Shown piece by piece: positions 26,982 through 54,773 of a stretch of DNA of 64,000 nucleotides. This DNA is from Lophium mytilinum (lineage: Eukaryota): contig MU004186.1 in assembly GCA_010093605.1 (NCBI GenBank), forward strand, positions 972,616-1,036,615. The letters run 5' to 3'. The position numbers were made by a program, and so were the translations under genes. How positions within the stretch are numbered: position 1 is the stretch's first letter; each line of letters begins with the position of its first letter. Below the pieces are notes generated by a model. The model saw only the letters and a program-made list of their open reading frames with translations, had not been told where the DNA came from and did not search any database.

Positions 26982-27883
26982 TTACCGGATTCCAACCTCG
27001 GACTTGCTCTCATCCCCCACTGTCACATTTCCGATATGCTGCCTGCTCACAAGCTGCAGCTCCAGCACACTCTTCGGCATGCCCACATGCGAAACTGCGC
27101 CTTTCCCCACATTAACGTTACCAATCTGCTGGTCCAGTTTCACGGACTCCAGTGTCTCTGACGCTCGATCGGATGCAGCCACGAAGTCAGCGCAGATTTC
27201 GGCTTGCAAGCGAAGCTCTTTCGCGGTTGCGTCCGCAATATCGGGATCAAGATCCACGTTCTCATCCACCTCTTGAGCTTCTGCTAGAACGTTCTCTCGC
27301 TCCTTCTGCGCATTGTCTTTCCACGCAGATAGTGTGCTTTTGATCTGGGCCATTTCCGTGGCTTTATTGGACTCAGATTTTTGCGGGTCATGGCGCCATA
27401 GAGATTTCCTAGTCACCCCGTTAGCATTCTTCACTTATGAAAGTATGGCTAACAAGCGATTACTCACACCGTGAGAATACTAAGAGCAAACTCAAGTAGC
27501 TTTTGCGTTGTCCGTATCTGCGAGACGTGTCGTTCGATCTTTGCCTTGTTATGACGGACGGTCATCCTGCTTCGCCAACTCCCTATACCTCTCTTCATCT
27601 ACTGCTCAAAGTTTGATACAAGGCTCTTGCAAGCTGCGTCGCAATCGTTGAGGGCCTTCGCTAGGCCAATATCGTTGAGGTCTTTCTGGGTAGCCTCGTC
27701 TGCACTTTTCAAGACAGAGAGGCTTCTCAAGCACGGTTCCAATCTTTCCAGTTCGGTTCGAATATCTCCAACTTGCTGTGGCACATCTTGTAAATCCTTG
27801 ATGTACTGGTACAGCGCGTTGATGCCTTTTAGACCCACATCCGCAGTTCCGATAATCGCTAAAGCTTCTCCAATCCCCGCCAT
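26982..27883 (-). pseudogene. HeLo-like/SesA-type (fungal STAND N-terminal) effector with two C-terminal HET-s-like amyloid repeats; premature stop
   Basis: MAGIGEALAIIGTADVGLKGINALYQYIKDLQDVPQQV...ELERL helical N-terminus. In-frame TAG at 27599-27601 with the frame open on both sides. Intron 27409-27467. Repeats QQIGNVNVGKGAVSHVG and QHIGNVTVGDESKSEVG at 26985-27137. Confidence 0.85.
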
Positions 27884-28530
27884 TGAGAGTTTTGCGAGGA
27901 TTCTATACAGCACCGGGGTTAGACTCTTCATACTTTCTTTCCACCTCTACAGGTGGATGCTCTTGCGAGGTAGAGGTCAATGAACACCACCAACTTACGT
28001 CCTCTTCTCAGACCCGGGGTCACAGCAACGACTCTGCGTCGTTGGGAAGCGCCGGGACAAGAGTCTCTGTGATCCTGGACGCCAATGTTTGAGGTCCTTG
28101 TTGCGTCTTCAGGAATCCAGTCGAGGTGTAATAACCAAGACAACGCAAATAAGATCGGCCTCGAAGAAACTTGATCGACTTGCGTTTGGGTGCTCGTAAG
28201 GACAATACTATGATCAAGCGATCTTTCCCAGTAGAACTAAGCCGAGCTTTTTCCGGCACTTGAAGAAGCTGCTTCCGCCTGATGTGGCCGCTCCGCCTGT
28301 GGATTCAGCTCAGCCCCGAGTCGCGAAATGTGTAAAGTGGTTTCTGCTGATACGCTCGATGCCTGTTCTTCATGCCGATCCATGTGCTAGCGTCCTTTAT
28401 ATGAGCCACCTCACAACAGCTTTCCCGCCCTAGACGAACGACCCTACCTACAACCCCCTCGCTGTGGTGAAGCTCGACCATTATATCTCCGCCCGAGTGT
28501 TCCTATCCAGAAGCGGAGTTTTGGCAAACC

Positions 28531-31524
28531 ATGTCGGCAGATCAAAAGGGCACATGAGCCGATAAGTCAGACGGTAGGCAACGTGACAACTATTAGTGCA
28601 GGTGCACACACGGAGATTAAGTTAACACTGGGCGACCAGAGTAAGGCCATTCACTCGCCTCTGCTGCGAATCGCGCTGAAAATGGCTAATTCTCATAGCT
28701 GCGAAACGTCAGACTCTTCAGAAATGGTTTGCACCTTGGCTATTCGATGGTGATAGTACGAGTCGGACACAACCGGATATCCTGGAAGAGCGTCGAAGTC
28801 TATCCGCTTCAGGGTGCGGTACTTGGCTCACGGAAGGCGTTCTGCCTGAATGGCTAAGATCTAGCAATGATTCTCTCTGGCTACACGGGAGTGTGGGATG
28901 CGGCAAAAGCATACTATGCTCTCAAGTAATTGGATACTTTCAAGAACGTCTGGGATCTGATATCACACCTACGCACCATCTTGTGGTACCGGCCTTTTTT
29001 GCATTTGACTTGAAATACACGCATCTCTCGGGTTTTCTAGCCCGAACACTGCTCGCAAAGCTATGCGCACTTGAGCATGTCCCCCTCGAGATCGAAGAAG
29101 CGTACCAATCTACTACATCTGCCTCGAATCTTGTCAATATCGCCGCAATAGTCAGGAATATATTGGCTGAACTCAACGAGGACGCCGTACAGAAGACATC
29201 AAGCCTAAGCACTATCAAGAAGAAGCCTATCAATCTCGTTCTCATCCTCGATGCTATTAACGAGATACCGGAGGAGCGACAGCAAAGAAATCTTCACTTC
29301 ATAAACCAGCTTGTTCGTATGAACGGCGATGGCCAGCAGATTCGTTTACGCATGTTGCTATTGAGCCGTAAAAATCCCATCATACAGCATCATTGTGCGC
29401 CAGAGCAAGGATGGCAGCATACGTGCATTCCGAAAAGGGAAGTTCATGGTGATATACGGACAGCGGTGCAAAGTCGGCTTCGTCGTCACCGGAGCTTGCG
29501 CGAAGACAGCAGGGCAAAGGCAGGAGATGCCGTCAATTCTGAAATCTTGGAAAAGGCAGGCGGAATACAAGTAATACTCATCTTTTGGATGCTCATTGGC
29601 TAACGAATACAGATTTCGCCTTGCGGGCTTGTACTTGGACGAGATAGACCACAAAATACAACAGTAGAATGTAGTCATCGACGAGTTCCGTTCCTTGATT
29701 GAGAGCATGCCTACCGGTCTCGACCAGTTCTTGTTGGATGAAAAAGCACACCCCGCCTAAGATTAGGGGGACCGGAAAATAAGCGATATTATAACACTCC
29801 AACAGTTCTACCATAGTATCCTGAGCAAGATTGAAGACGAGACCTTGCGCCGACATATCGCCCATGCGCTTCGCTGGGTGCTGTGTGCAGCCAGACCTCT
29901 GCTGACGGAAGAATTGGTCGAGGCCTGTGCGATGCTTCATCAGCCTCACGAGCGTCTGGCGCTAAGGCTGAGTCACGACGATATCTTCGATCCTCTTAGT
30001 GGACTGCTCACAATTTAATCGTCATTGAAGGGCAAACGTGCTGTGCGCTTAGCACACGCTTCTGTTGGCGATTACCTGGGTAGGTTGTACCAGATGGAGC
30101 AAAACATCTTGAAAGACTGGAGCATGGAGGCTTCTTTCTTCTCGCGACACGAGGCGCACTTCCAGCTCACCAAATATTGCTTCGCCTATCTTGTATATGC
30201 CTTCGAGGCTCGAAATGAAGACATAGTAGTCGATGAAGGCGATGGGCGCGCCGCCGTAGATCTGGATGGTCACAGCGATCTGATATCTAGGTTTCCAATG
30301 CTGGAGTATGTGCTATCCTGTTGGTCCTACCATGCGGCATCTCATATTCAGGATTCTGCGCAAACCTGGCGGCAACGCCTCATCTCGTCCGACATTAAGG
30401 AATCGATCCAAAGTCGAAAGACGGTGCTCAGAAACGGGGGCTTCGATCTTTCGTTTCTTTGGAATTTTATCGTGCTCTTGATGCTATGGTCTTTTCGGCT
30501 CATAGCGGGTAAACTCTTGCAAAGCGCAATCTACACAGAGCTCGACTCAGTCTCCCTGCTCGCATTGGAGCGTAGGACATCAAACTCATCCAGGGCAGGC
30601 CTAACTTATCGCAAATGCCCTCAGCTTAATAGTTTCCTACTCTCACAAGTGAAACGTATCGCAGATTCTGCGTTGACTCGTGGGCAGCAAGATGCTCTCT
30701 TTGCAAAGGCATTACGCTCTCCGAATGCTGCCTTCGAGTCAGTCTTTGGCGATCAACTTCACTTTGGTATCGGATTTGACCAGTACCCCAGAGCTTCAAG
30801 ACTCCTCGCTATCCATCCCTCGCAAGACCCACGCTCACACGTTTCATGCAGCTTAGTCACCGACTCCCTAGAAAATTTGGCACAGTACGAGTTCGTTTCC
30901 TCCGAATAGGACAACCTGGATCAACACGAACTAAGTTACGTCAACGGTCGAGCTATAGAGATCAGGACGAAGACGCCTGCTAAAGCCTTGCGCCGCTTAC
31001 GTCGAGCCTCCGATACTCGCGTGGTCTGGTTCGGTCCAATCTGTAAGAGCGATGAAAAGACTTCGCTGCTCAATTCGATGGCGATCGTGAAGAGGCTTAA
31101 TGACGACCGATTAGCACTTGCAGAGGAGTTTGAGGACTACTTCGCAATCACAAGGAGGCTTTGGGACTACTTACCATTCGGTGAACTGACAGTGACAATG
31201 AGTGTCACTGAACCCATCAAGATGTCGGACGACTTGGAACTTTTCGAACTAATAAAGTATGCCACTAGAACCATCATGTGGAAGGATCAAGATCAAATGA
31301 TGCGCCTTGAAGATCACTCTGAGTCTACAGTCACGAAATCTATAGAGCCTAGGCAGTCATCCGCAATGGACTTTCCAGTGGGCTTTACAGACAGATCCCC
31401 GCCTGTCGAGAAACCTCGACCTAGCAGAAAGGCGCCGTACAGCTTACGCAACACACTCCTAAGCCTCCTCTTATATACCGCCTTTCTGACTATGGTCTAT
31501 GTATTCGTAAACGCACTCTCTTGA
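28531..31524 (+). pseudogene. NACHT NLR-like gene: N-terminal amyloid motif, NACHT, winged helix, degenerate HET domain, C-terminal hydrophobic tail
   Basis: Exon 1 ISQTVGNVTTISAGAHTEI; intron 28641-28698; Walker A LWLHGSVGCGKS; Walker B LILDAINE; ALRWVLCAARPL..EL and VRLAHASVGDYL. Frameshift at ~28544-28550; stops at 29665, 30016 and 30907. Confidence 0.88.
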
Positions 31525-31697
31525 TGACGGCGTAGAACCTGATTTTAGTGCTGGCCTTCTCCAGTCATTTTCTCATATAGCTACTCCAGAGATGTTGAAC
31601 TGATGCTTTAATGCTAGTTCTCGATACCAAATCACTATGGATACAGTACTCATCCTTATCCCTTCTCGCCCCTCAAACACCACCCCAGAACACGACC

Positions 31698-33673
31698 TCA
31701 CCTACCCTCTAAAATATCATCCGCAATCTTCTCCCCAAGCGCATAGCACGTGCTCTGGGGATGTCCTGGCGGCAGGAACGGGAAAATACTCGCATCCACC
31801 ACCCTCAAGCCCTTAACCCCAAAAACCTTCGCCGTCGAATCCACCACCGCCTTCGGATCCCCAGCCTTCCCCATCGCACACGTTGCAGACGCATGCCAGA
31901 CCTGGAGCGCGCTGTTGCGGATGAAATCGATAATATCGGCGTCGCTCGTCACGTTCGAGCCGGGAAGATACTCGGTGCCGCGAACCGCGATGTTATTCCA
32001 GACCTCACGCGTGCGCTTGAAAGCCGCAAGGGCCACTTCGACGTCTGCAGGGTGGGTCAGCCAATTGGGGTTGATGACAGGCGCGTCGTTTGTGTCTGCG
32101 CTGGTGATGGTGACGTTGCCGCGGGAAAGGGGCGCGACGAGAGCCGCGCCTACGGAACCGTACTGAGAACTGTCGACGAACTGGTCCAGTGCGTTGCGCC
32201 AGTATCCGAGGACGCCGTCTAAGCCCATGTATTCGATTTCGGGCCAATCGGAGGGGAAGCTGTTCAAAGCGGCAATCGTATCCTTGCTGAGACTGCGACG
32301 AACGTTGTCGGGGAGCTTCTCCCAGCCAATGACTCCGACACCGTTTGCAGTCAGCATGCCGGTGCCGGAGGCGTAGTCTACGACGGCCTCCGCGGCGAAA
32401 GCGACGTCGTTGGTGAGGCGAGAGGCCGTCGTGACGCCAATGCGACTGACGGTGCCGAAGAAGACGTGGTCCCACATGTTTTGGCCGACACCAGCAAGAT
32501 CTGAAATGAGTGGAATACTCAGTCCTTCGAGGGTTGCCCGCGGTCCAATTCCAGACACCATAAGAAGTTGGGGTGATTGGAAAGCGCCGGCAGAGATGAT
32601 GACCTCCTTGCGGGCAGTAAGTGTCCACTTGGCACCGGCTTGCTCGACCTGTACGCCACTAGCGACGGTGGTGTTCTTGAATAGAATTTTCTTGGCCATA
32701 GTCAGGGGGTAGACTGTGATTTTAGTGTTTGCCATCGCTTGTTTGAGGAAACTTGTTTCCGAAGAGTCGCGTGCTTCGCCATTAGGATTGATTGTGCTCG
32801 CGATCCATGACGATCCGGTCAAACTCCCGCTGTTATGGTCGTTGCCTGGTTTGACGCCGATTGCTATGAGACCAAGTTCAACCCATGATGATAACGGTGA
32901 TGCCCAGTTTGGCCAAGAAATCTGGAGTGGACCGCCTAAGGAGTTGTCGAATACGTTGGCATTGTACGTTACGGTGGCATTCGCGAATCGCTCGGTGGTG
33001 TTCGGAGGCGTGAGCGTGCAGCTCTTCTCAAAGTACGGCAGGAGGTTGTCCCAGGCGTAGCTGTCATCTCCAACTTGGTCCGCCCATTTCTGATACGAGC
33101 CTTTCGTGCCTCTGGATTCAATTAGCACGAATGAAAGACCAGTAAACGATCGAATTCGAAGAAAATAGCCTCAACAGTCGCCATCATACATAGGGTCGAG
33201 TTTGAAACCTTGCTTACCTATGATATACCAGGAAATGGCGTGCAGAGCTTCCACCCAGACACTTCCCTCGAGCATAATGCATCTTTCGATTCGCAGCGCC
33301 CTAATATGTTGTCAGTCAAAGCGAAAATGGCAAGCTCTCAGCATGTATCTCATACAGCTTGAGGTGTCGTCACAAACCCCCAGTCAATCAAATCAGTATC
33401 AGATGGATCCGTTCCAGTCGCTTGGATTGCAGCAAACCCTGGGATGATGCTGAGTGGGTTGAGCGTCTCGTAGGATCCACCAGCTTCCACGACTGCGACC
33501 GAAATGGAGGAATTAGCAGCTAGCCTCGCAGCTAGGGTAAGTCCTGACGTTCCACCACCAACGACGACATAATCGTATGTCGCAGACACAAAAGGAACTC
33601 CGTATGAGCCAGAGAGAACACCAGGAACGAGAATGAGCAACGCCAAAGCGAAGGAAAACACCAATGGAAACAT
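31698..33673 (-). CDS. Secreted GMC oxidoreductase (AA3)
   Basis: Signal peptide; YDYVVVGGGTSG FAD motif; SAGAFQSPQLLMVSGIG; WHASATCAMG; GLRVVDAS; GHP second catalytic His. Confidence 0.95.
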
Positions 33674-35290
33674 GGCGAGACACTAGAACTGATGGAAACG
33701 AGTGATGATTTCTGGGAGGTGATCTTGCAACGCTGCGCAATGATGATATACAGCTCTGATATGAAGTCTAGGAGGTGGGCGACCTCACATGCCTACCGCG
33801 GGTTTCCGCTTGAGATTGGACCGATGCCAGTCGAGTGTCAAGCCTGCACAAAAGCCATCTCCGCGTAGCCCTTGAGAGAACCATATTTGTTGGACTATAG
33901 CCTGCAATTCAACCACATTCATGGGCTCAGAACAGCTAATGCACTCTTCTGAAGATGTATAATTAGCATAAGAGGCTGGCGGAGCGGGACCCGATGCAGG
34001 GGCGCAACCGCTGGCCACTGGCTTGCTGAGCATGATCGGAAATTGCAAAGGTCGGCAGCTGGTTTAGAGACATATCCCCGGTTGAAGACTACCATGTCAG
34101 AAGCACGTGAATGCTGCAGGTACATTATGACTCGCGACCCGTGTGAATGATGGGCATCGCGGGGATGCACTCCAAATGCTCCACATACACACGGTCTAAT
34201 TCAACGTGCCCTCGGCAACTACTAGATCCCCACCTGGAGTTACCCGGGTGATTGCATGTATAGGGTGACCTGTGCTTCAGCGGTAGTGCTGTGCTTTCCA
34301 TGGCTACGGGGCCGAGTTGCTGGAAAAGGCCAACTTTTAGACGACATTTCTGGCCCCGGTGCGTCGGTTTGAACACGACCGAGCAGCATGTGAGAGAGGC
34401 AAGATTCCGATGAGAATATTATTTGAGTTTGCGCAATGCGTTTGGTGATGGATGGTAGTTGAAGATACTGTAGCTGTGTACATAGGTAGTGCTATTAGGG
34501 GCCCGGGCCGCTTCCGTCCCGTTCCGACCTCGGACGAGGAGACGCTTGGGGCATCATCCATTCCCTCCTTTCTTTCCATCCTCCTCATTGCCCTATCTTT
34601 CGGAGACTTCGAGGGGCATGGGCCTGACATCCTCGAGATGCCATACTTCGCCTTTCGTACGCGGAGATCATGGTGAGTAAAAGTAGACGGTATCTGTTAG
34701 AACATCAGCGTACGCACCTTTCATGAGCTCGCAGCGCTTCCGCCATGGGACTCCAATGTACGAAAACTTTTCGTGCTACAGAAAATTCCTTCACTGATTT
34801 TCACTTTGAACTTCAGAGGTTCGGGCGATAGAATCAGCGAATAGAGCTTCCAATTGCTGCCAGGCAACCAAGATGCTTCGTATGTACGACCCTCGCGCAC
34901 GAGTCCTTGAAAAGCAATATCTCTAGGTCTTTGGATAAGGCTTAGAATCTAGAGACTCATCATTCGAGGACCTCAAGCAGTGGTAGACGAGTATGCAAAT
35001 ATCTGTATCGCAGTCTTCTATCGTTCTTGCTCCCAAAAATACTCGCTCTCGAAGCGTACTGCCTTAATTTCGGTCTCCAGAAGGTTACTGCCCACTGAAC
35101 TCATGCCGCCGAGCCCGGACACTCAATCTACCTCTTCTGCCCTTCCTCGCCATTTTCAACCTCATCATCAATCGTCAGCAACCATCTTCCAATCGCTATA
35201 AAAACCTGCAATCGCTATCCAAGCTATCAGTTGCTATCCGAGCTATTAACTCGCATCCTGATCCATCATTTACTCATTAAACCACACATC

Positions 35291-36328: not shown

Positions 36329-36938
36329 GCTCTAAGGTGCCAATTTGTGCTCACAGCATTCCATCATTGATCTTGAGTTTCCAACTGTGCACACCAATTT
36401 ACCACCGTATATGGCCTGGTAAGCTATTAGGCGTTCCAATTCATTCCATTCCCACACATCATCATAGACTTGTGCACATTGTTCTGCCACTGCTTGTAGT
36501 GCCTCATGATATGATGCGGTCCCTGGATCAGATCGAGTCCAAAGATTTTGGACAAAGGGTAAACTTGCGAGGCCACCCCGACAGTGGCAGAGTAACGTAC
36601 ACAACTGGGAGCTGTGATTTCCGTGCTATTCACTAAACCGAAGCGCTACATGCCCTGGCTGCAAAGCGAGCACGAATTCAAGACGAGGCATTCTACTATC
36701 TCTATCTCCCTACACTCACTACCATAGAAAACATTTCCCGTCCGTTGAACTACTCCGACCCGTGACCATTTTCGGCTAGGCGCGTCTGTTTGCGTATCCA
36801 CAGCGACGTGTCGACACGTCTTCTACTTTCCTCGTAACTTCACTCCTACCTTTATGGGTCCCGCTAGACTGTTCTACGCTTAGCTCTGACAATAAGAACT
36901 CCGCCACTACCTCACCACAAGCCTCAAAGCTCTGCAGC

Positions 36939-38453
36939 ATGTCCAACCGCTTTTCGCCTCCTGGTCGCGGTAGCAAACGCCTGCGCCACACCAACTCTAC
37001 GGCCGACATCGACGACAGAGATCTCGACTACGGCCGCCTGTCGCGCCCGTCTAGTGTCGACAGCTTCAAGCCGCGCTCCGAGCCGCTACTATCAAGGGAA
37101 TGGTCAGCGCCATCGGCGCTGGAGTCACTCGTCGAGCAGGAGGATTCGTACGAGATCGAGGACATGTCCTCTCAAGAGCTTCATGCGGCGCCAAGATCGC
37201 ATGGGCAGGCTGAATCCGGGACGATGCCGTATGACCATGACGAGCTTGCGTCGACTGGGCTGACGAACGAGGAATATCAGAACCCTTCCACTCCGACCGC
37301 GCTGAGCCCACAACACCAGAACACCTTCGCGCCAGCGACGGCGAGTCCAGGATATCCAATTGCCATGATGGGAATGTCACCAAACGTCAGCCATCGCCGG
37401 TACACTTCACAGGAAAAAGCCGCCACCCCTGTGATCCAACACCGTCAACCCGCGTACTGGTCCGGATACCGCCAGCCAACCCACCCCTATCCATCACAAC
37501 CACCACCCATAGCAGTCCAGCACGGCTTCCGCCTCCCCTTCCAAACCCCCCAACCAACCCACCCCGACGACCCTTCCCTCCCGAAGAACTTCAACTTCCA
37601 GCCCCTCACCTGCTTCTTCTGGAAGACGCGCGCCCACGGCTGCAAGTTCACCGCCGGGGAGTGCCAATTCGCGCACTGGGACACAGGCGCGCTTGCGCCC
37701 GCGCCCAAAGACTTCGATCTGGGGCTGTCCAAACGCGAGCTGAAGAAAGAGCGGCCGGCGATCGCGAACCGGAGGGGCGGCGACGAAGAGCAGCGTAAGA
37801 AGCGTCCCCCTTTTCGCGTTCCCAGCGGAAACAACCTACTCACAAAACCCGTACTCACAAAACCCGTACTCACAAAACCCGTACTCACAAAACCCGTACT
37901 CACAAAACCCGTACTCACAAAACCCGTACTCACAAAACCCTCTCTAGACGCCCCATCACCAAACTCTCCATACGCCCATTCCACCCAACAACCGCACCCA
38001 CACACCCCGAATCCGCACCACCCGCTCCAGCAACCCCAACCCTTCAGCGGCGGCCCGGGTGTGGGGGTGGGTGGGGGGGTGGCAGCGTACCAGCACGCCA
38101 GGGGCTACCAGGTCCCTTACCAGCAGCACCTCAACAGCCCGCCATATGGGTACGGGGGCGGACTGCAGAGCCCGTACCTCTCGCCGCGGCAGCAGGCGCA
38201 CCGCCGACCTCACCAACCGTCGCCGTTCAGCCCGTTCCATACCCCGTACTCCTCTCCGCCGCAGAATCCCCCACTGCCCCCCGGAGCCCCGCAAGGACCG
38301 CAGCAACAGCGCCGGCAGAAACTCCCTCCGGCGGAAGAAGCGCTGGCGGGGCGCGAGCGCGCGATTGAGGAGAAGGAGAGGCAGTTGCGGATGTGGGAGA
38401 CGCGGTTGAGGCAGTGGGAAGAGGGTTTGTGTGAGAGGGAGAGGAGGATGTAG
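36939..38453 (+). CDS. Low-complexity P/Q-rich protein with one CCCH zinc finger and C-terminal coiled coil
   Basis: CFFWKTRAHGCKFTAGECQFAHWDTG in a 504-aa ORF. Confidence 0.8.
   Translation: MSNRFSPPGRGSKRLRHTNSTADIDDRDLDYGRLSRPSSVDSFKPRSEPLLSREWSAPSALESLVEQEDSYEIEDMSSQELHAAPRSHGQAESGTMPYDHDELASTGLTNEEYQNPSTPTALSPQHQNTFAPATASPGYPIAMMGMSPNVSHRRYTSQEKAATPVIQHRQPAYWSGYRQPTHPYPSQPPPIAVQHGFRLPFQTPQPTHPDDPSLPKNFNFQPLTCFFWKTRAHGCKFTAGECQFAHWDTGALAPAPKDFDLGLSKRELKKERPAIANRRGGDEEQRKKRPPFRVPSGNNLLTKPVLTKPVLTKPVLTKPVLTKPVLTKPVLTKPSLDAPSPNSPYAHSTQQPHPHTPNPHHPLQQPQPFSGGPGVGVGGGVAAYQHARGYQVPYQQHLNSPPYGYGGGLQSPYLSPRQQAHRRPHQPSPFSPFHTPYSSPPQNPPLPPGAPQGPQQQRRQKLPPAEEALAGRERAIEEKERQLRMWETRLRQWEEGLCERERRM
37837..37940 (+). 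repeat. Coding minisatellite (TACTCACAAAACCCG) x ~7, encoding LTKPV repeats
   Basis: Six perfect 15-bp units plus 14 bp, in frame inside the CCCH gene. Confidence 0.97.
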
Positions 38454-38795
38454 GGGAGGGTGGTAGGGGATGTCTGTGGGGATTTGGGGAGGGAGGTAGG
38501 ATGGAGGCGGGAGATGGCAGCGGTCAGGAATCCGGTGGCTCGTGGACGTGTGACGGGGTTCGTGTTACAGGCTGTTGGATTCGAGAGGTGGTGTACGAGA
38601 ATGGGAAGGGTAATGGGAATCGGTAGTTAAACGGCACTGTCCGGCGTGCTGCAAAGGGTAATGGGTAATGGGACACTCGACTCGAATGAGATGTAGGATT
38701 ACGGGGCGTAGGTAATGAATTTCGTTTTCTCTTTTAACAAGATCGAGACGACCGTAATACGTAACGGACGTCGCCACCCGTAACCACAACCATCC

Positions 38796-40521
38796 TTACA
38801 ACTCCTCAATCCTCCCCAACACCCAGCTCAAATGCCGGTAGCTCGTCCGCGGCTGAAACTGCGGCTGCATATGCCCACTCTGATACGTCTCCGCCCACAT
38901 CAACCCGCGCTCATGATGCTGCACCCCCATAATCCCCTGCCCGGGCCCATCCCACCCCTCAAACCCGCTGTCCACATACACCTGCGCGTACTGTAGATCC
39001 GGCAGCTTGATGTTGATCGGTTTCGACGGCTGCGCCACGAACCCCAGCGCGCCGTTCCACGTCATGTTCTGGATACCGAGTAGGGTACCGACGACCGGCA
39101 GCTCCATGTCGTAGTCGCCGCCGGCAATGAGCACGCGGTTGGTGGTCTCGATGACGCGCGGGAGGACGTGCTGGATGGGGTCGGCCGAGAGGTCGCCGTA
39201 GCCGGCTGGGCCGGAGGAGCCGTTGAAAGCGAGGCCGTTGCATTCGCTCCAGGTGGTGTTCGGGGCGTGGATCGCGGCCTTGACGTCGGGGCGGTCGAAG
39301 TAGGCGTACTCGCCAAATGCAGGGTACAGGTACACGAGATCGGAGGGGAAGCCGAGGGGGTCGGAAGGGAGAGGGCACATCAGGCTGATTTCGTAGACGT
39401 TGAAGCAGGGGTTGATGCGGTACGCTTCCTTGTACACTTCGTTCCAGAGGTCGCAGCCGTCGGCGGTGGTGTTGGGCTCGAAGGCGGGCTGGACGCCCGA
39501 GGCGGGGTAGGTGAGGTAGGTGTCGGTGTAGTTGCGGTAGCCGCAGCTTTCGTAGGCGTAGGAGAGATGGTCCATGTAGGTTTTGTTGAAGTTGAAGAAC
39601 TTGGCGTGGTCTTCGACGAAGGGCACGATGGGGATGGCGGTCTCCTGGCGGTCGAGCTGGCCAATGACGGGGTCGTAGATGAGAATGCCCGAGAGGTTGT
39701 AGTAGCATGGGTCCGCAGCCTCGATCATGGCGTCGGCGATGTATGGCACATATCTGCCGGCGTAGGACTCGCCGGTGACGTAGATCTTGTAGTTCTTGAT
39801 GCCGAACTTGGTTTGGAAGTTCTTGAAGAACTTGAGGAAGTCGGCAGCGATTTCTTCCTCGGAGGTAGCTACGGGGGTGTAGTTGGCTGAAAATCCAACG
39901 CCGAGAGGGTATTCGACCCTAGACTCAGTCAGTTTGTGTTGAGTTGAGACTTCTTCCTCATGTCAAACTTACCATAGCATATTCGTCAGGTTGGCCCAGG
40001 CATACATGTTCTGCTGTGCATTCGCCATGCCCCACGACCAGATGAAGGTTCCCGTTTCTTGCAAGAAGCCCTCCAAGGACGAGCAGCCAGGTCCGCCATT
40101 CAACCAGATGGTGATTTCGTCTACAGGATCACCACCGATGCGCGGCTCGAAGAAGAAGAACATGGCACTATCAGGATCAGACTCATCCACGGGCATGAAG
40201 CCGCTGTACAGCTCGCCGACATCAATGTCGATGTCGGGGAGAGCATCGACGCGGTACTCTAGTATGCGTCAGAGCTTATTGAAGAGGAGGGAGCTATCAA
40301 TGCAATTGGAGATTCTCACCAGCAGTAGTATCCGTCAGATAACGGAAGCTGGACGTATTCGTAGTCCTCGACTCTATTCCACGCCGTGCAGGCTGCGCAT
40401 GCTTTTGAAATCGCTCCTTCTGGTCTGCTTGGGTATTGTAGAGTTTGGCTTCAACACCAGCATTATTTAGCAACAAGAAAAAGGCAGCAAGAAGCGCCGG
40501 AATCAACAATTGACGAGCCAT
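38796..40521 (-). CDS. Secreted serine carboxypeptidase (peptidase S10)
   Basis: Signal peptide; WLNGGPGCSS; GESYAG nucleophile; SGHM catalytic His; two introns near 40260-40318 and 39918-39972. Confidence 0.95.
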
Positions 40522-54048: not shown

Positions 54049-54204
54049 AGAAATAGATCAGATAAATAAGATATCGTTCACTTCAACCGTAGCCTGAGAA
54101 GACATTGACCCGTGTTATGTCTGCAAGGAGATCTGCGCAACGGATCCAGCTTGACACGGCATTTCGGAAGTCTGTGTCGAAGCTATTTGATGACCAGAGC
54201 ATCT

Positions 54205-54773
54205 TCAGATAATCAGGTTGCGGCCAACGCAATCCCTGGATTTCATGTGGCAGAGAAAAGGCCAATTCTCTGTGATCAGATTCGAGCGAGGTTCCGAGCC
54301 ACACATGAACAGTGTCGGCTCTCCGATATTCTGGATGGTTTGCATCCGTCTAACTTGCCGATTGCGCTCTTGAATATCCTGCTGATTGATAAATAGGGCG
54401 TCAATCCACCATAGATTCCTTGGGCCCTCATCGATCACATGCTGAAGGTGTCAAAGTGTCTAAGAGACGTTCTTTCTAATGTCTCCGCTCTATTCCGTTG
54501 ATCACAATATGCTCTGACTCGGCTTGATCTCCCCATGCCGTAAGACAGAGCATCTTACTTCAAACAGTTATCTAGTGACACCATGATGAGGTTGTCTGTC
54601 AATTTTGCGCAGTCCTCATCGGATTTAACGATCTCTACGACTCCGATCTCGTTCTTTTCGGGGTTCGATGACTGGTACGGCGAGCCTGGCCATATGTTGC
54701 GATCTTGACGGTCGGAGTGGACGGCATCCGGGCTGTGCTTAAAAGGCTTTAGGAATGGGAGCTCTGTTGGCAT
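54205..54773 (-). pseudogene. HET domain (heterokaryon incompatibility) pseudogene
   Basis: LK*DALSY(fs)AWG and WWIDALFINQQDIQERNRQVRRM match HET motifs YxALSYxWG and WIDAICINQxDxxERxxQV; stops and frameshifts present. Confidence 0.85.

Follow-up and report, generated by a model that had tools for sequence, protein, structure and literature searches.

Fungal NLRs (receptors built around a nucleotide-binding and oligomerization domain, NOD) usually have an N-terminal effector, followed by the NOD and by C-terminal repeats. HET, a cell-death-inducing domain related to TIR (PMC4986451, PMC9815663, PMC10197012), is one of the N-terminal effectors, and ankyrin (ANK), WD40, TPR and also HEAT repeats are found as the C-terminal sensors (PMC4986451, PMC9815663, PMC10197012, PMC12258605). 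In the incompatibility NLRs HET-E, HET-D as well as HET-R of Podospora anserina (HNWD), the HET domain is N-terminal to a T-NACHT-type NOD, and the WD40 sensor is C-terminal. Stand-alone HET genes are also abundant in fungi, and TOL, PIN-C and HET-6 are types of such stand-alone HET proteins (PMC10197012), which have no NOD module in front. In the HET-S/NWD2 layout, a gene for a HeLo-type executioner with two repeats lies beside an NLR gene with one matching N-terminal motif (PMC4518210, PMC9815663). Here we describe an NLR-type gene in a stretch of 64,000 nt from Lophium mytilinum (assembly GCA_010093605.1, contig MU004186.1, positions 972,616 to 1,036,615 of the forward strand; hereafter the window, with position 1 at its first letter). 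The gene shares the building blocks HET and T-NACHT-type NOD with HNWD, but its HET domain comes after the NOD and no repeats follow. Very probably, the locus is a decayed, pseudogenised copy of a rare NLR-type gene of fungi with a C-terminal HET module. Homology to intact relatives, collinearity with them, lesions and a splice joint, all of which were observed at this locus, carry this reading.

The ancestral protein would have consisted of a short N-terminus, a NACHT domain of the NPHP3_N type, a winged helix, a helical domain, a linker and a complete HET-type module (the HET domain together with the long C-terminal region that normally follows it when HET proteins stand alone), and it would have had no ANK, WD40 or TPR repeats. 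The ancestral gene may have acted as an NLR in which oligomerisation of the NACHT domain controlled cell death. Its decay would have left exon 1 with no start codon, a one-base frame break at the junction between NACHT and the following helix, and three point nonsense codons; a multi-copy 73-bp element with inverted repeats would have been inserted in the coding sequence, bringing two further stops; and the sequence past the first half of HET would have been lost, with about 145 codons of unrelated sequence in its place. The coordinates of all these features are summarized in Table 1.

The NOD part of the gene is well preserved in the second exon. Pfam NPHP3_N (PF24883) matched this exon with 65.4 bits (cut-off 24.8; E 9.4e-18), and the NACHT family (PF05729) stayed below its cut-off (19.7 vs 26.7). 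A Walker A motif, G-S-V-G-C-G-K-S, is found at 28887-28910, and a Walker B-like motif, L-I-L-D-A-I-N-E, lies within the open frame of the exon. Two sequencing runs were compared with the window: a DNA run (X1), which agrees with the window, although it may be the source of the window itself and is then not independent, and an RNA-like run (X3), whose RNA nature is a guess supported by one GT..AG joint. This joint is that of intron 1, since one X3 contig omits exactly 28641-28698 (joint 28640|28699); the intron is retained in another X3 piece, 28629-29000. If X3 is taken as RNA, which is a guess, transcription still covers at least part of the locus, with splicing of the first intron. X3 pieces also lie on 29162-29410, 29916-30255 and 30661-30881, and no X3 sequence covers, for example, 29504-29670, 30339-30505 and 31007-31507.

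After the NACHT exon, homology continues in frame 1 from 29614 through the winged helix, and the frame-1 stretch extends to the TGA at 31522-31524. The winged-helix model of Pfam (GPIID_WHD) remained under its cut-off here (18.7 vs 27), and the winged-helix and helical stretch aligns with the family motifs W-x-L-x-A-A-R-P and A-H-x-S-V. The initial annotation, which was made from the sequence of the window, had noted that no repeats follow the NACHT domain and the winged helix; in agreement with this, Pfam found no ANK, WD40, TPR or other repeat family at E<=1 in the read-through translation of 29767-31521.

The same annotation had pointed to HET-like strings, which are located in frame 1 at 30793-31060. 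A phmmer scan of 1,835,955,588 representative proteins (query 30700-31521, with the stop read as X; E<=1e-3) gave 35 matches, the best with E 1.5e-7 and none at 1e-10. Pfam HET is present in all 35 of them, and they cover residues ~4-159 of the query. When 10 of the 35, those without a NOD module, were combined into a profile of stand-alone HET proteins, hhalign aligned it to nt 30781-31092 (98.93%, E 1.3e-17, 103 columns, 37% identity). It is thus the N-terminal 100 residues of stand-alone HET proteins of the TOL, PIN-C and HET-6 type that match the window, and what can be detected is the leader preceding the domain together with roughly the first half of the domain. These comparisons indicate that, as had been proposed, the HET-like block represents a degenerate HET domain, for its N-terminal half only. 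The conserved blocks of HET domains are S-Y-x-W-G, W-x-D-x-x-C and a third block, W..W..Q-E. The window copy retains 11 of 17 family-invariant columns in its HET part, and the losses, in the numbering of the intact relative P0007, are L695V, Y697S, W699 to stop, L737V, D740G and Q755L. In the first block, Tyr is replaced by Ser and Trp by a stop; in the second, W and C are retained, Asp is replaced by Gly and the next Glu is retained; the third block was not detected in the profile and alignment comparisons with the family and with stand-alone HET proteins.

A second decayed HET fragment was found at 54050-54600 on the reverse strand (Pfam HET, E 1.1e-7, 32.7 bits, in read-through). It contains several stops, its tblastn pieces fall in two frames, and the genes on either side encode an alpha-galactosidase (52.3-54.0 kb) and an amino-acid transporter (55.3-56.6 kb).

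The NACHT and HET parts of the NLR-type locus belong to one gene, and two lines of evidence bear on this. First, a single open frame, 30019-30909, connects the helical domain of the NLR without a break to the linker and the HET motif. Second, the same arrangement is found in intact proteins. Three of the 35 phmmer matches (P0007, 1219 aa; P0018, 1171 aa; P0026, 1188 aa) have an N-terminal NPHP3_N domain and HET at residues ~630-830, and the order of NACHT and then HET is identical in P0039, P0041 and P0049, the last of which carries an extra NACHT_N domain in front. These six intact proteins (1171-1443 aa), which have a conserved linker, are from five named ascomycete species, Teratosphaeriaceae sp. 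(P0007 and P0039), Elasticomyces elasticus (P0026), Lophiostoma macrostomum (P0018), Xylographa pallens (P0041) and Stipitochalara longipes (P0049), and this small set of intact proteins falls in Dothideomycetes, Lecanoromycetes and Leotiomycetes. Their database names are hypothetical or HET-domain proteins. They also have no ANK, WD40 or TPR repeats according to Pfam, and the usual order of effector and NOD is reversed in them. The intact proteins and the window copy have the same order of NPHP3_N/NACHT, winged helix, helical domain, linker and HET, and they are collinear. NACHT and HET occur in one protein in the intact relatives and not in separate genes, and this order without repeats is an inherited architecture. 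The initial annotation, which had placed HET C-terminal to NACHT in the same gene and had looked to intact relatives of the same domain order, is borne out on both points, although the six relatives are distant ones, and no relative was found to have the region corresponding to 30780-31524 as a gene of its own.

The alignments extend over most of the preserved part of the gene. In hhalign, the read-through matched an alignment of eight family members (99.92%, E 1.1e-34, 387 columns), and query residues 1-490 (nt 29614-31083) were collinear with residues 290-760 of P0007. With tblastn, P0009, P0008 and P0022 each gave one high-scoring pair (HSP) from 29794 to 31044-31182, the HSP of P0009 being 29794-31182 (E 8e-23), and the best match of the NACHT exon was P0007 (E 1.9e-28, vs ~1e-11 for NACHT-ankyrin proteins). 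The family profile (1057 positions) matched the window at positions 15-178, 185-224 and 220-584, and 33 of 46 invariant family columns are retained overall (22 of 29 outside HET). The intact proteins contain a full HET domain (Pfam, 68-99 bits) and ~400 residues after it, that is, a whole HET protein of the stand-alone type including its C-terminal motif, whereas the window copy has only profile positions 15-584, with interruptions. Over the aligned parts the identity is only 24-43%, a low value that makes the window copy a distant member of the family and not an orthologue. The relatives surfaced only through the full HMMER scan: in the word-indexed search, none of the proteins of 349-1113 aa matched the read-through 29614-31521 at E<=1e-3, and the NACHT exon had two matches among longer proteins, both of them NACHT-ankyrin proteins with 27% identity. 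In the ESM Atlas, P0018 led to clusters that carry NPHP3_N, NACHT and HET (218, 106, 63 and 128 members), which do not measure the frequency of the reversed order because domain order is not given.

Some of the relatives have a short N-terminus ahead of NACHT. In P0039, P0041 and P0018, ~40-100 residues precede NACHT and contain, as judged by eye, short Gly/Asn/Ser-rich stretches; N-T-A-S-D-G-S-x-Q-I-I, again seen by eye, is common to the N-termini of P0039 and P0041. Such sequences could be N-terminal signalling motifs.

Among described NLRs, those of Sordariales with non-canonical C-terminal domains likewise have a non-repeat domain C-terminal to the NOD (PMC12258605). In the portion of that paper available here, however, HET is the canonical N-terminal domain, and the C-terminal additions and putative integrated decoys discussed are zinc-finger, SPRY and kinase domains. 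Its table S3 holds 206 occurrences of 'HET' in 199 HET-bearing rows, and HET lies only downstream of the nucleotide-binding domain in six of the 199 rows (PMC12258605). Of these six, four are sesB-NACHT-WD40 gene models in which two genes were merged, with WD40 repeats between NACHT and HET; a fifth is NACHT-Ank-HET, and the remaining one, neupan-1_g6723, has NACHT and then HET without repeats (PMC12258605). Because of neupan-1_g6723, the reversed order is already present in published tables, and wording that names HET C-terminal to NACHT as a class was not found among the best-ranked literature matches, as far as the available portions of these sources extend.

The lesions begin in exon 1, the translation of which contains no ATG. 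Between 29537 and 29605, the family homology shifts from frame 0 to frame 1, from which we infer a 1-nt frame break at 29571-29613, unless splicing is non-canonical. In frame 1 from 29614, five in-frame stops are present (29665, 29758, 29764, 30016 and 30907). The initial annotation had seen a single stop; that stop stands, and the locus has five of them and the frame break instead of one. Two of the five, TAA 29758 and TAG 29764, are carried by an insertion resembling a miniature inverted-repeat transposable element (MITE), which adds 78 nt (26 codons), with a direct repeat at a spacing of 78. A 26-residue insertion relative to the family sits exactly at this element in hhalign, and without the 78 bases the flanking codons meet the family consensus L-D-x-Y-Y-x-x-I-L. 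The summed contig depth of X1 in the bin with the element was 5099, vs ~160 alongside (~30-fold), and the assembly breaks there; 29731-29806 is matched by many other X1 contigs (~30), with 4-6 differences each, and the element is present once within the window. The element represents a small MITE-like family in this genome, with its superfamily unassigned. Contigs of the RNA-like X3 contain it as well. As a spliceable intron or introner, the element was rejected: no GT..AG pair removes exactly the 78 bases, and an X3 contig contains the element. GT 29727 or 29733 with AG 29805 would remove 79 or 73 nt, out of frame; with AG 29783, where the sites are poor, 57 or 51 nt would be removed and seven surplus codons would remain. 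This rejection comes from the sequence and not from direct RNA at this locus.

The family profile positions 585-1057 of 1057 had no match in the six frames of 27000-34000 at E<=10 with the filters off; the second half of HET and the ~400-residue C-terminal region, 45% of the profile, are therefore gone. No phmmer match extends beyond query residue 159 (~nt 31176). Repeat-induced point mutation (RIP) was ruled out as the cause of the stops, since no RIP signature was detected and the dinucleotide indices are ordinary at 28-32 kb. The decay is probably not ancient, because 22 of the 29 invariant columns outside HET are retained. One gene thus shows decay by three routes: point stops, insertion of a small element with inverted repeats, and truncation. 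NLR genes broken by stops, frameshifts and insertions of transposable elements are reported to be frequent in Podospora (PMC13449251), and the decay of the window copy is therefore ordinary. The window copy has no function to offer and its functional interest is low; it is an example of the birth-and-death turnover of NLR and HET genes.

Table 1. Features of the NLR-type locus and of the adjoining HeLo-like gene, in positions of the window (KD19, Kyte-Doolittle mean over 19 residues)
Feature	Position	Strand	Remarks
HeLo-like (PF17111) gene	26982-27883	-	ATG 27883-27881, stop 26984-26982; divergent from the NLR-type gene
In-frame TAG in the HeLo-like domain	27601-27599	-	Residue 95
Intron of the HeLo-like gene	27467-27409	-	59 nt, GTGAGT..TAG
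C-terminal repeats r1 and r2 of the HeLo-like gene	27131-27084, 27041-26994	-	Core Q-x-I-G-N-V at the start; candidates for amyloid signalling
NLR-type gene	28.4-31.5 kb	+	Single gene between these bounds
Exon 1 of the NLR-type gene	28391-28640	+	Frame 2; in-frame TAG 28388-28390 upstream; without ATG
Candidate motif r0, Q-x-V-G-N-V	28568-28585	+	In exon 1 of the NLR-type gene
Intron 1	28641-28698	+	58 nt, GT..AG; in-frame link from exon 1 (frame 2) to exon 2 (frame 0)
NACHT/NPHP3_N exon	28699-29570	+	Open, within open frame 28680-29603
Intron-like stretch	29571-29612	+	42 nt, GTAATA..CTAAC..CAG; followed by surplus base 29613
Post-NACHT helix, winged helix, helical domain, linker and first half of HET	29614-31083	+	Frame 1
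Point stop TAG	29665-29667	+	Inside aligned coding region
MITE-like insertion	29732-29804	+	73 bp; 7-nt perfect terminal inverted repeats TGTTGGA/TCCAACA, GTTCT direct repeat
Point stop TAA	30016-30018	+	Inside aligned winged-helix/helical region
Internal hydrophobic stretch FLWNFIVLLMLWSF	30448-30522	+	In the linker from the helical domain to HET; KD19 up to 1.84
Degenerate HET remnant	30793-31092	+	Leader R-L-L-x-x-H-P-S and about the N-terminal half of HET
Point stop TAG	30907-30909	+	At the invariant Trp (W699) of HET motif S-Y-x-W
Orphan tail	31093-31524	+	~145 codons; ends with TGA 31522; no detectable relative
Terminal hydrophobic stretch	31450-31521	+	In the orphan tail; KD19 up to 2.06

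Several points weigh against the reading of the locus as a decayed NACHT-HET gene. The Pfam HET profile named in the initial annotation (PF06985) found no match, either at E<=1 in the read-through or at E<=10 in three crops of 30700-31521, although the same model detects the decayed fragment at 54050-54600 and the intact relatives (68-145 bits). For this reason, HET membership is drawn from the pairwise and profile-profile searches and concerns the first half of the domain; the Pfam model begins only at S-Y-x-W, where the window copy is most damaged. The family members are gene models without experimental study. The 42-nt splice before the frame break is inferred, because no RNA piece covers 29571-29613, and the point stops have no explanation by RIP. 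The X3 piece 29916-30255 spans TAA 30016 without a joint, but it has one differing letter, the place of which is unreported. Since the window may derive from X1, sequence errors are not independently excluded. Other strains could carry an intact allele.

The last point leads to the alternative that the window holds a recently inactivated or strain-polymorphic allele of a locus that is intact and functional in other isolates, which we consider improbable. Young decay is suggested by the proportion of invariant columns retained and by the NACHT exon, which is open and has intact Walker motifs, and strain-dependent pseudogenisation has been reported for some NLRs of Podospora in the available part of PMC13449251. 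However, the missing 45% at the C-terminus, together with the orphan tail and several lesions of independent origin, argues for more than one recent event, X3 is identical to the window in the aligned pieces except for the one unplaced letter, and the word-indexed search among proteins of 349-1113 aa revealed no close homologue.

It is still less probable that the locus consists of two genes, one for a repeat-less NLR that ends at ~30.5 kb and, downstream of it at 30.78-31.52 kb, a degenerate HET gene of its own. The abundance of stand-alone HET genes in fungi (PMC10197012) would fit such an arrangement, as would the 32 of the 35 phmmer matches that show no NPHP3_N and the second decayed HET fragment at 54.05-54.6 kb. 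The open frame 30019-30909, however, crosses from the helical domain and linker of the NLR into the HET motif, P0009, P0008 and P0022 each cover both parts with one HSP, and the six proteins of the five named species have both parts together with the conserved linker. For this locus, the two-gene arrangement is refuted by the single frame and the collinearity.

The initial annotation had also proposed a membrane anchor from the two hydrophobic stretches. Hydrophobicity was assessed as the KD19 with a threshold of >=1.6, in place of a dedicated transmembrane predictor, and by this measure both stretches exist. The terminal one sits past the end of all homology detectable with phmmer and the family profile. 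The relatives end in the usual motif of HET proteins and not in a hydrophobic tail, and none of the nine examined has a C-terminal hydrophobic segment other than this conserved motif. In the alignment, the internal one coincides with a hydrophobic stretch in P0009, the closest relative, and a hydrophobic stretch in the linker is absent in eight of the nine relatives examined; it is probably a lineage-specific part of the linker. As a chance level, 29 of the 161 stop-free stretches of at least 100 aa in the six frames of the window contain such a hydrophobic segment. We conclude that an inherited membrane anchor is not indicated by these comparisons; the stretches stand as such, and the anchor role assigned to them, with the terminal one an orphan and the internal one shared by one relative in nine, does not.

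That the locus is a working membrane-anchored NLR with its degenerate HET domain as a decoy or sensor, as originally annotated, the stops being spliced out, read through or due to assembly errors, is the least credible alternative and is largely refuted by the lesions: although the HET module sits in the sensor position, two hydrophobic segments reach the threshold, the locus is partly transcribed and spliced and the columns outside HET are mostly retained (22 of 29), three of the five stops (29665, 30016 and 30907) lie in well-aligned columns with no GT..AG around them, the X3 piece 29916-30255 is unspliced, no GT..AG intron removes exactly the 78 inserted bases, the frame is broken, exon 1 has no ATG, 45% of the family profile is missing, and the terminal hydrophobic stretch belongs to a part that has no relatives, at a chance level of 29 in 161 open stretches.

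In addition to the NLR-type gene, the window contains a gene of the HeLo-like family, which is divergent from it. Pfam PF17111 matched the open reading frame alone with E 6.5e-7 and, when the in-frame stop was read as X, residues 4-110 across the stop with E 2.5e-8 (34 bits, cut-off 27.2). The two C-terminal repeats of this gene are identical at 10 of 16 residues, and their Smith-Waterman score of 39 was reached in 3 of 2000 shuffles. A similar core is found in exon 1 of the NLR-type gene: over all six frames, the 64-kb window has three occurrences of the pattern Q.[IV]GNV, namely in exon 1 and in both repeats, as against a mean of 0.1 and a maximum of 2 in 50 shuffles. The position rules of HET-s-related amyloid motifs (HRAM), judged by eye, are partially fitted. 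The locus resembles HET-S/NWD2 in that a gene for a HeLo-type executioner with a double C-terminal repeat adjoins an NLR gene with one candidate copy of a similar N-terminal core. It differs from HET-S/NWD2 in that the C-terminus of the NLR is a HET module and not WD40, in that both genes carry stops, and in that the motif, a candidate from the sequence alone, is without Pfam or BLASTP support.

In one X3 contig, the sequence is unbroken over 27500-28640, from inside the HeLo-like gene across the divergent intergenic region to the first splice donor of the NLR-type gene. Either the two genes have overlapping transcripts, or that of the NLR-type gene begins far upstream.

It may be that the NLR signalled via an N-terminal amyloid motif to its HeLo-like neighbour in the manner of HET-S/NWD2; we find the arguments for and against this pairing to be evenly balanced. 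If the pairing holds, the output of the NLR would have been in trans and the HET module would have been in the position of the sensor. Against it, the pattern Q.[IV]GNV was defined after the sequences had been seen, and the similarity of exon 1 to the C-terminus of the neighbour is weak (Smith-Waterman score 27, reached in 144 of 2000 shuffles), with nothing found by BLASTP between the two at E<=100. Pfam likewise gave no family at E<=1 and no described amyloid motif for exon 1 and for the C-terminus of the neighbour.

A broader proposal, which is tentative and rather doubtful, is that the intact relatives form an undescribed class of fungal NLRs, in which a complete HET-type protein would stand in for the repeat sensor and the output would pass via a short N-terminal amyloid motif to a HeLo-like executioner encoded next to it. 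HET might then serve for sensing or as bait, as an integrated decoy for a factor that targets HET or TIR-like proteins, or alternatively as a second, auto-inhibited effector, and the window would hold the fossil of a two-gene system, both partners of which decayed together. The HET module in the sensor position and the candidate motif in exon 1 are compatible with the idea of a decoy or sensor in the initial annotation, and they test it neither way. The arrangement of the relatives raises the question of what controls the NOD when the death domain occupies the position of the sensor. The NACHT-HET family is a variant of the fungal NLR theme and is worth a proper survey.

As for the rest of the window, its DNA is ascomycete-like, with ~51% G+C and short introns. 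The next gene downstream of the NLR-type gene, on the reverse strand (31.7-33.7 kb) and ending at 31698, encodes a GMC oxidoreductase, and an AMP-binding gene lies at 25-26 kb. The G+C content is raised at 36780-40000 (0.55-0.61 vs ~0.51 elsewhere in the window). An open frame of 557 codons at 36780-38453 on the forward strand, for which Pfam gave no family, adjoins a gene for a serine carboxypeptidase S10 at 38796-39962 on the reverse strand.

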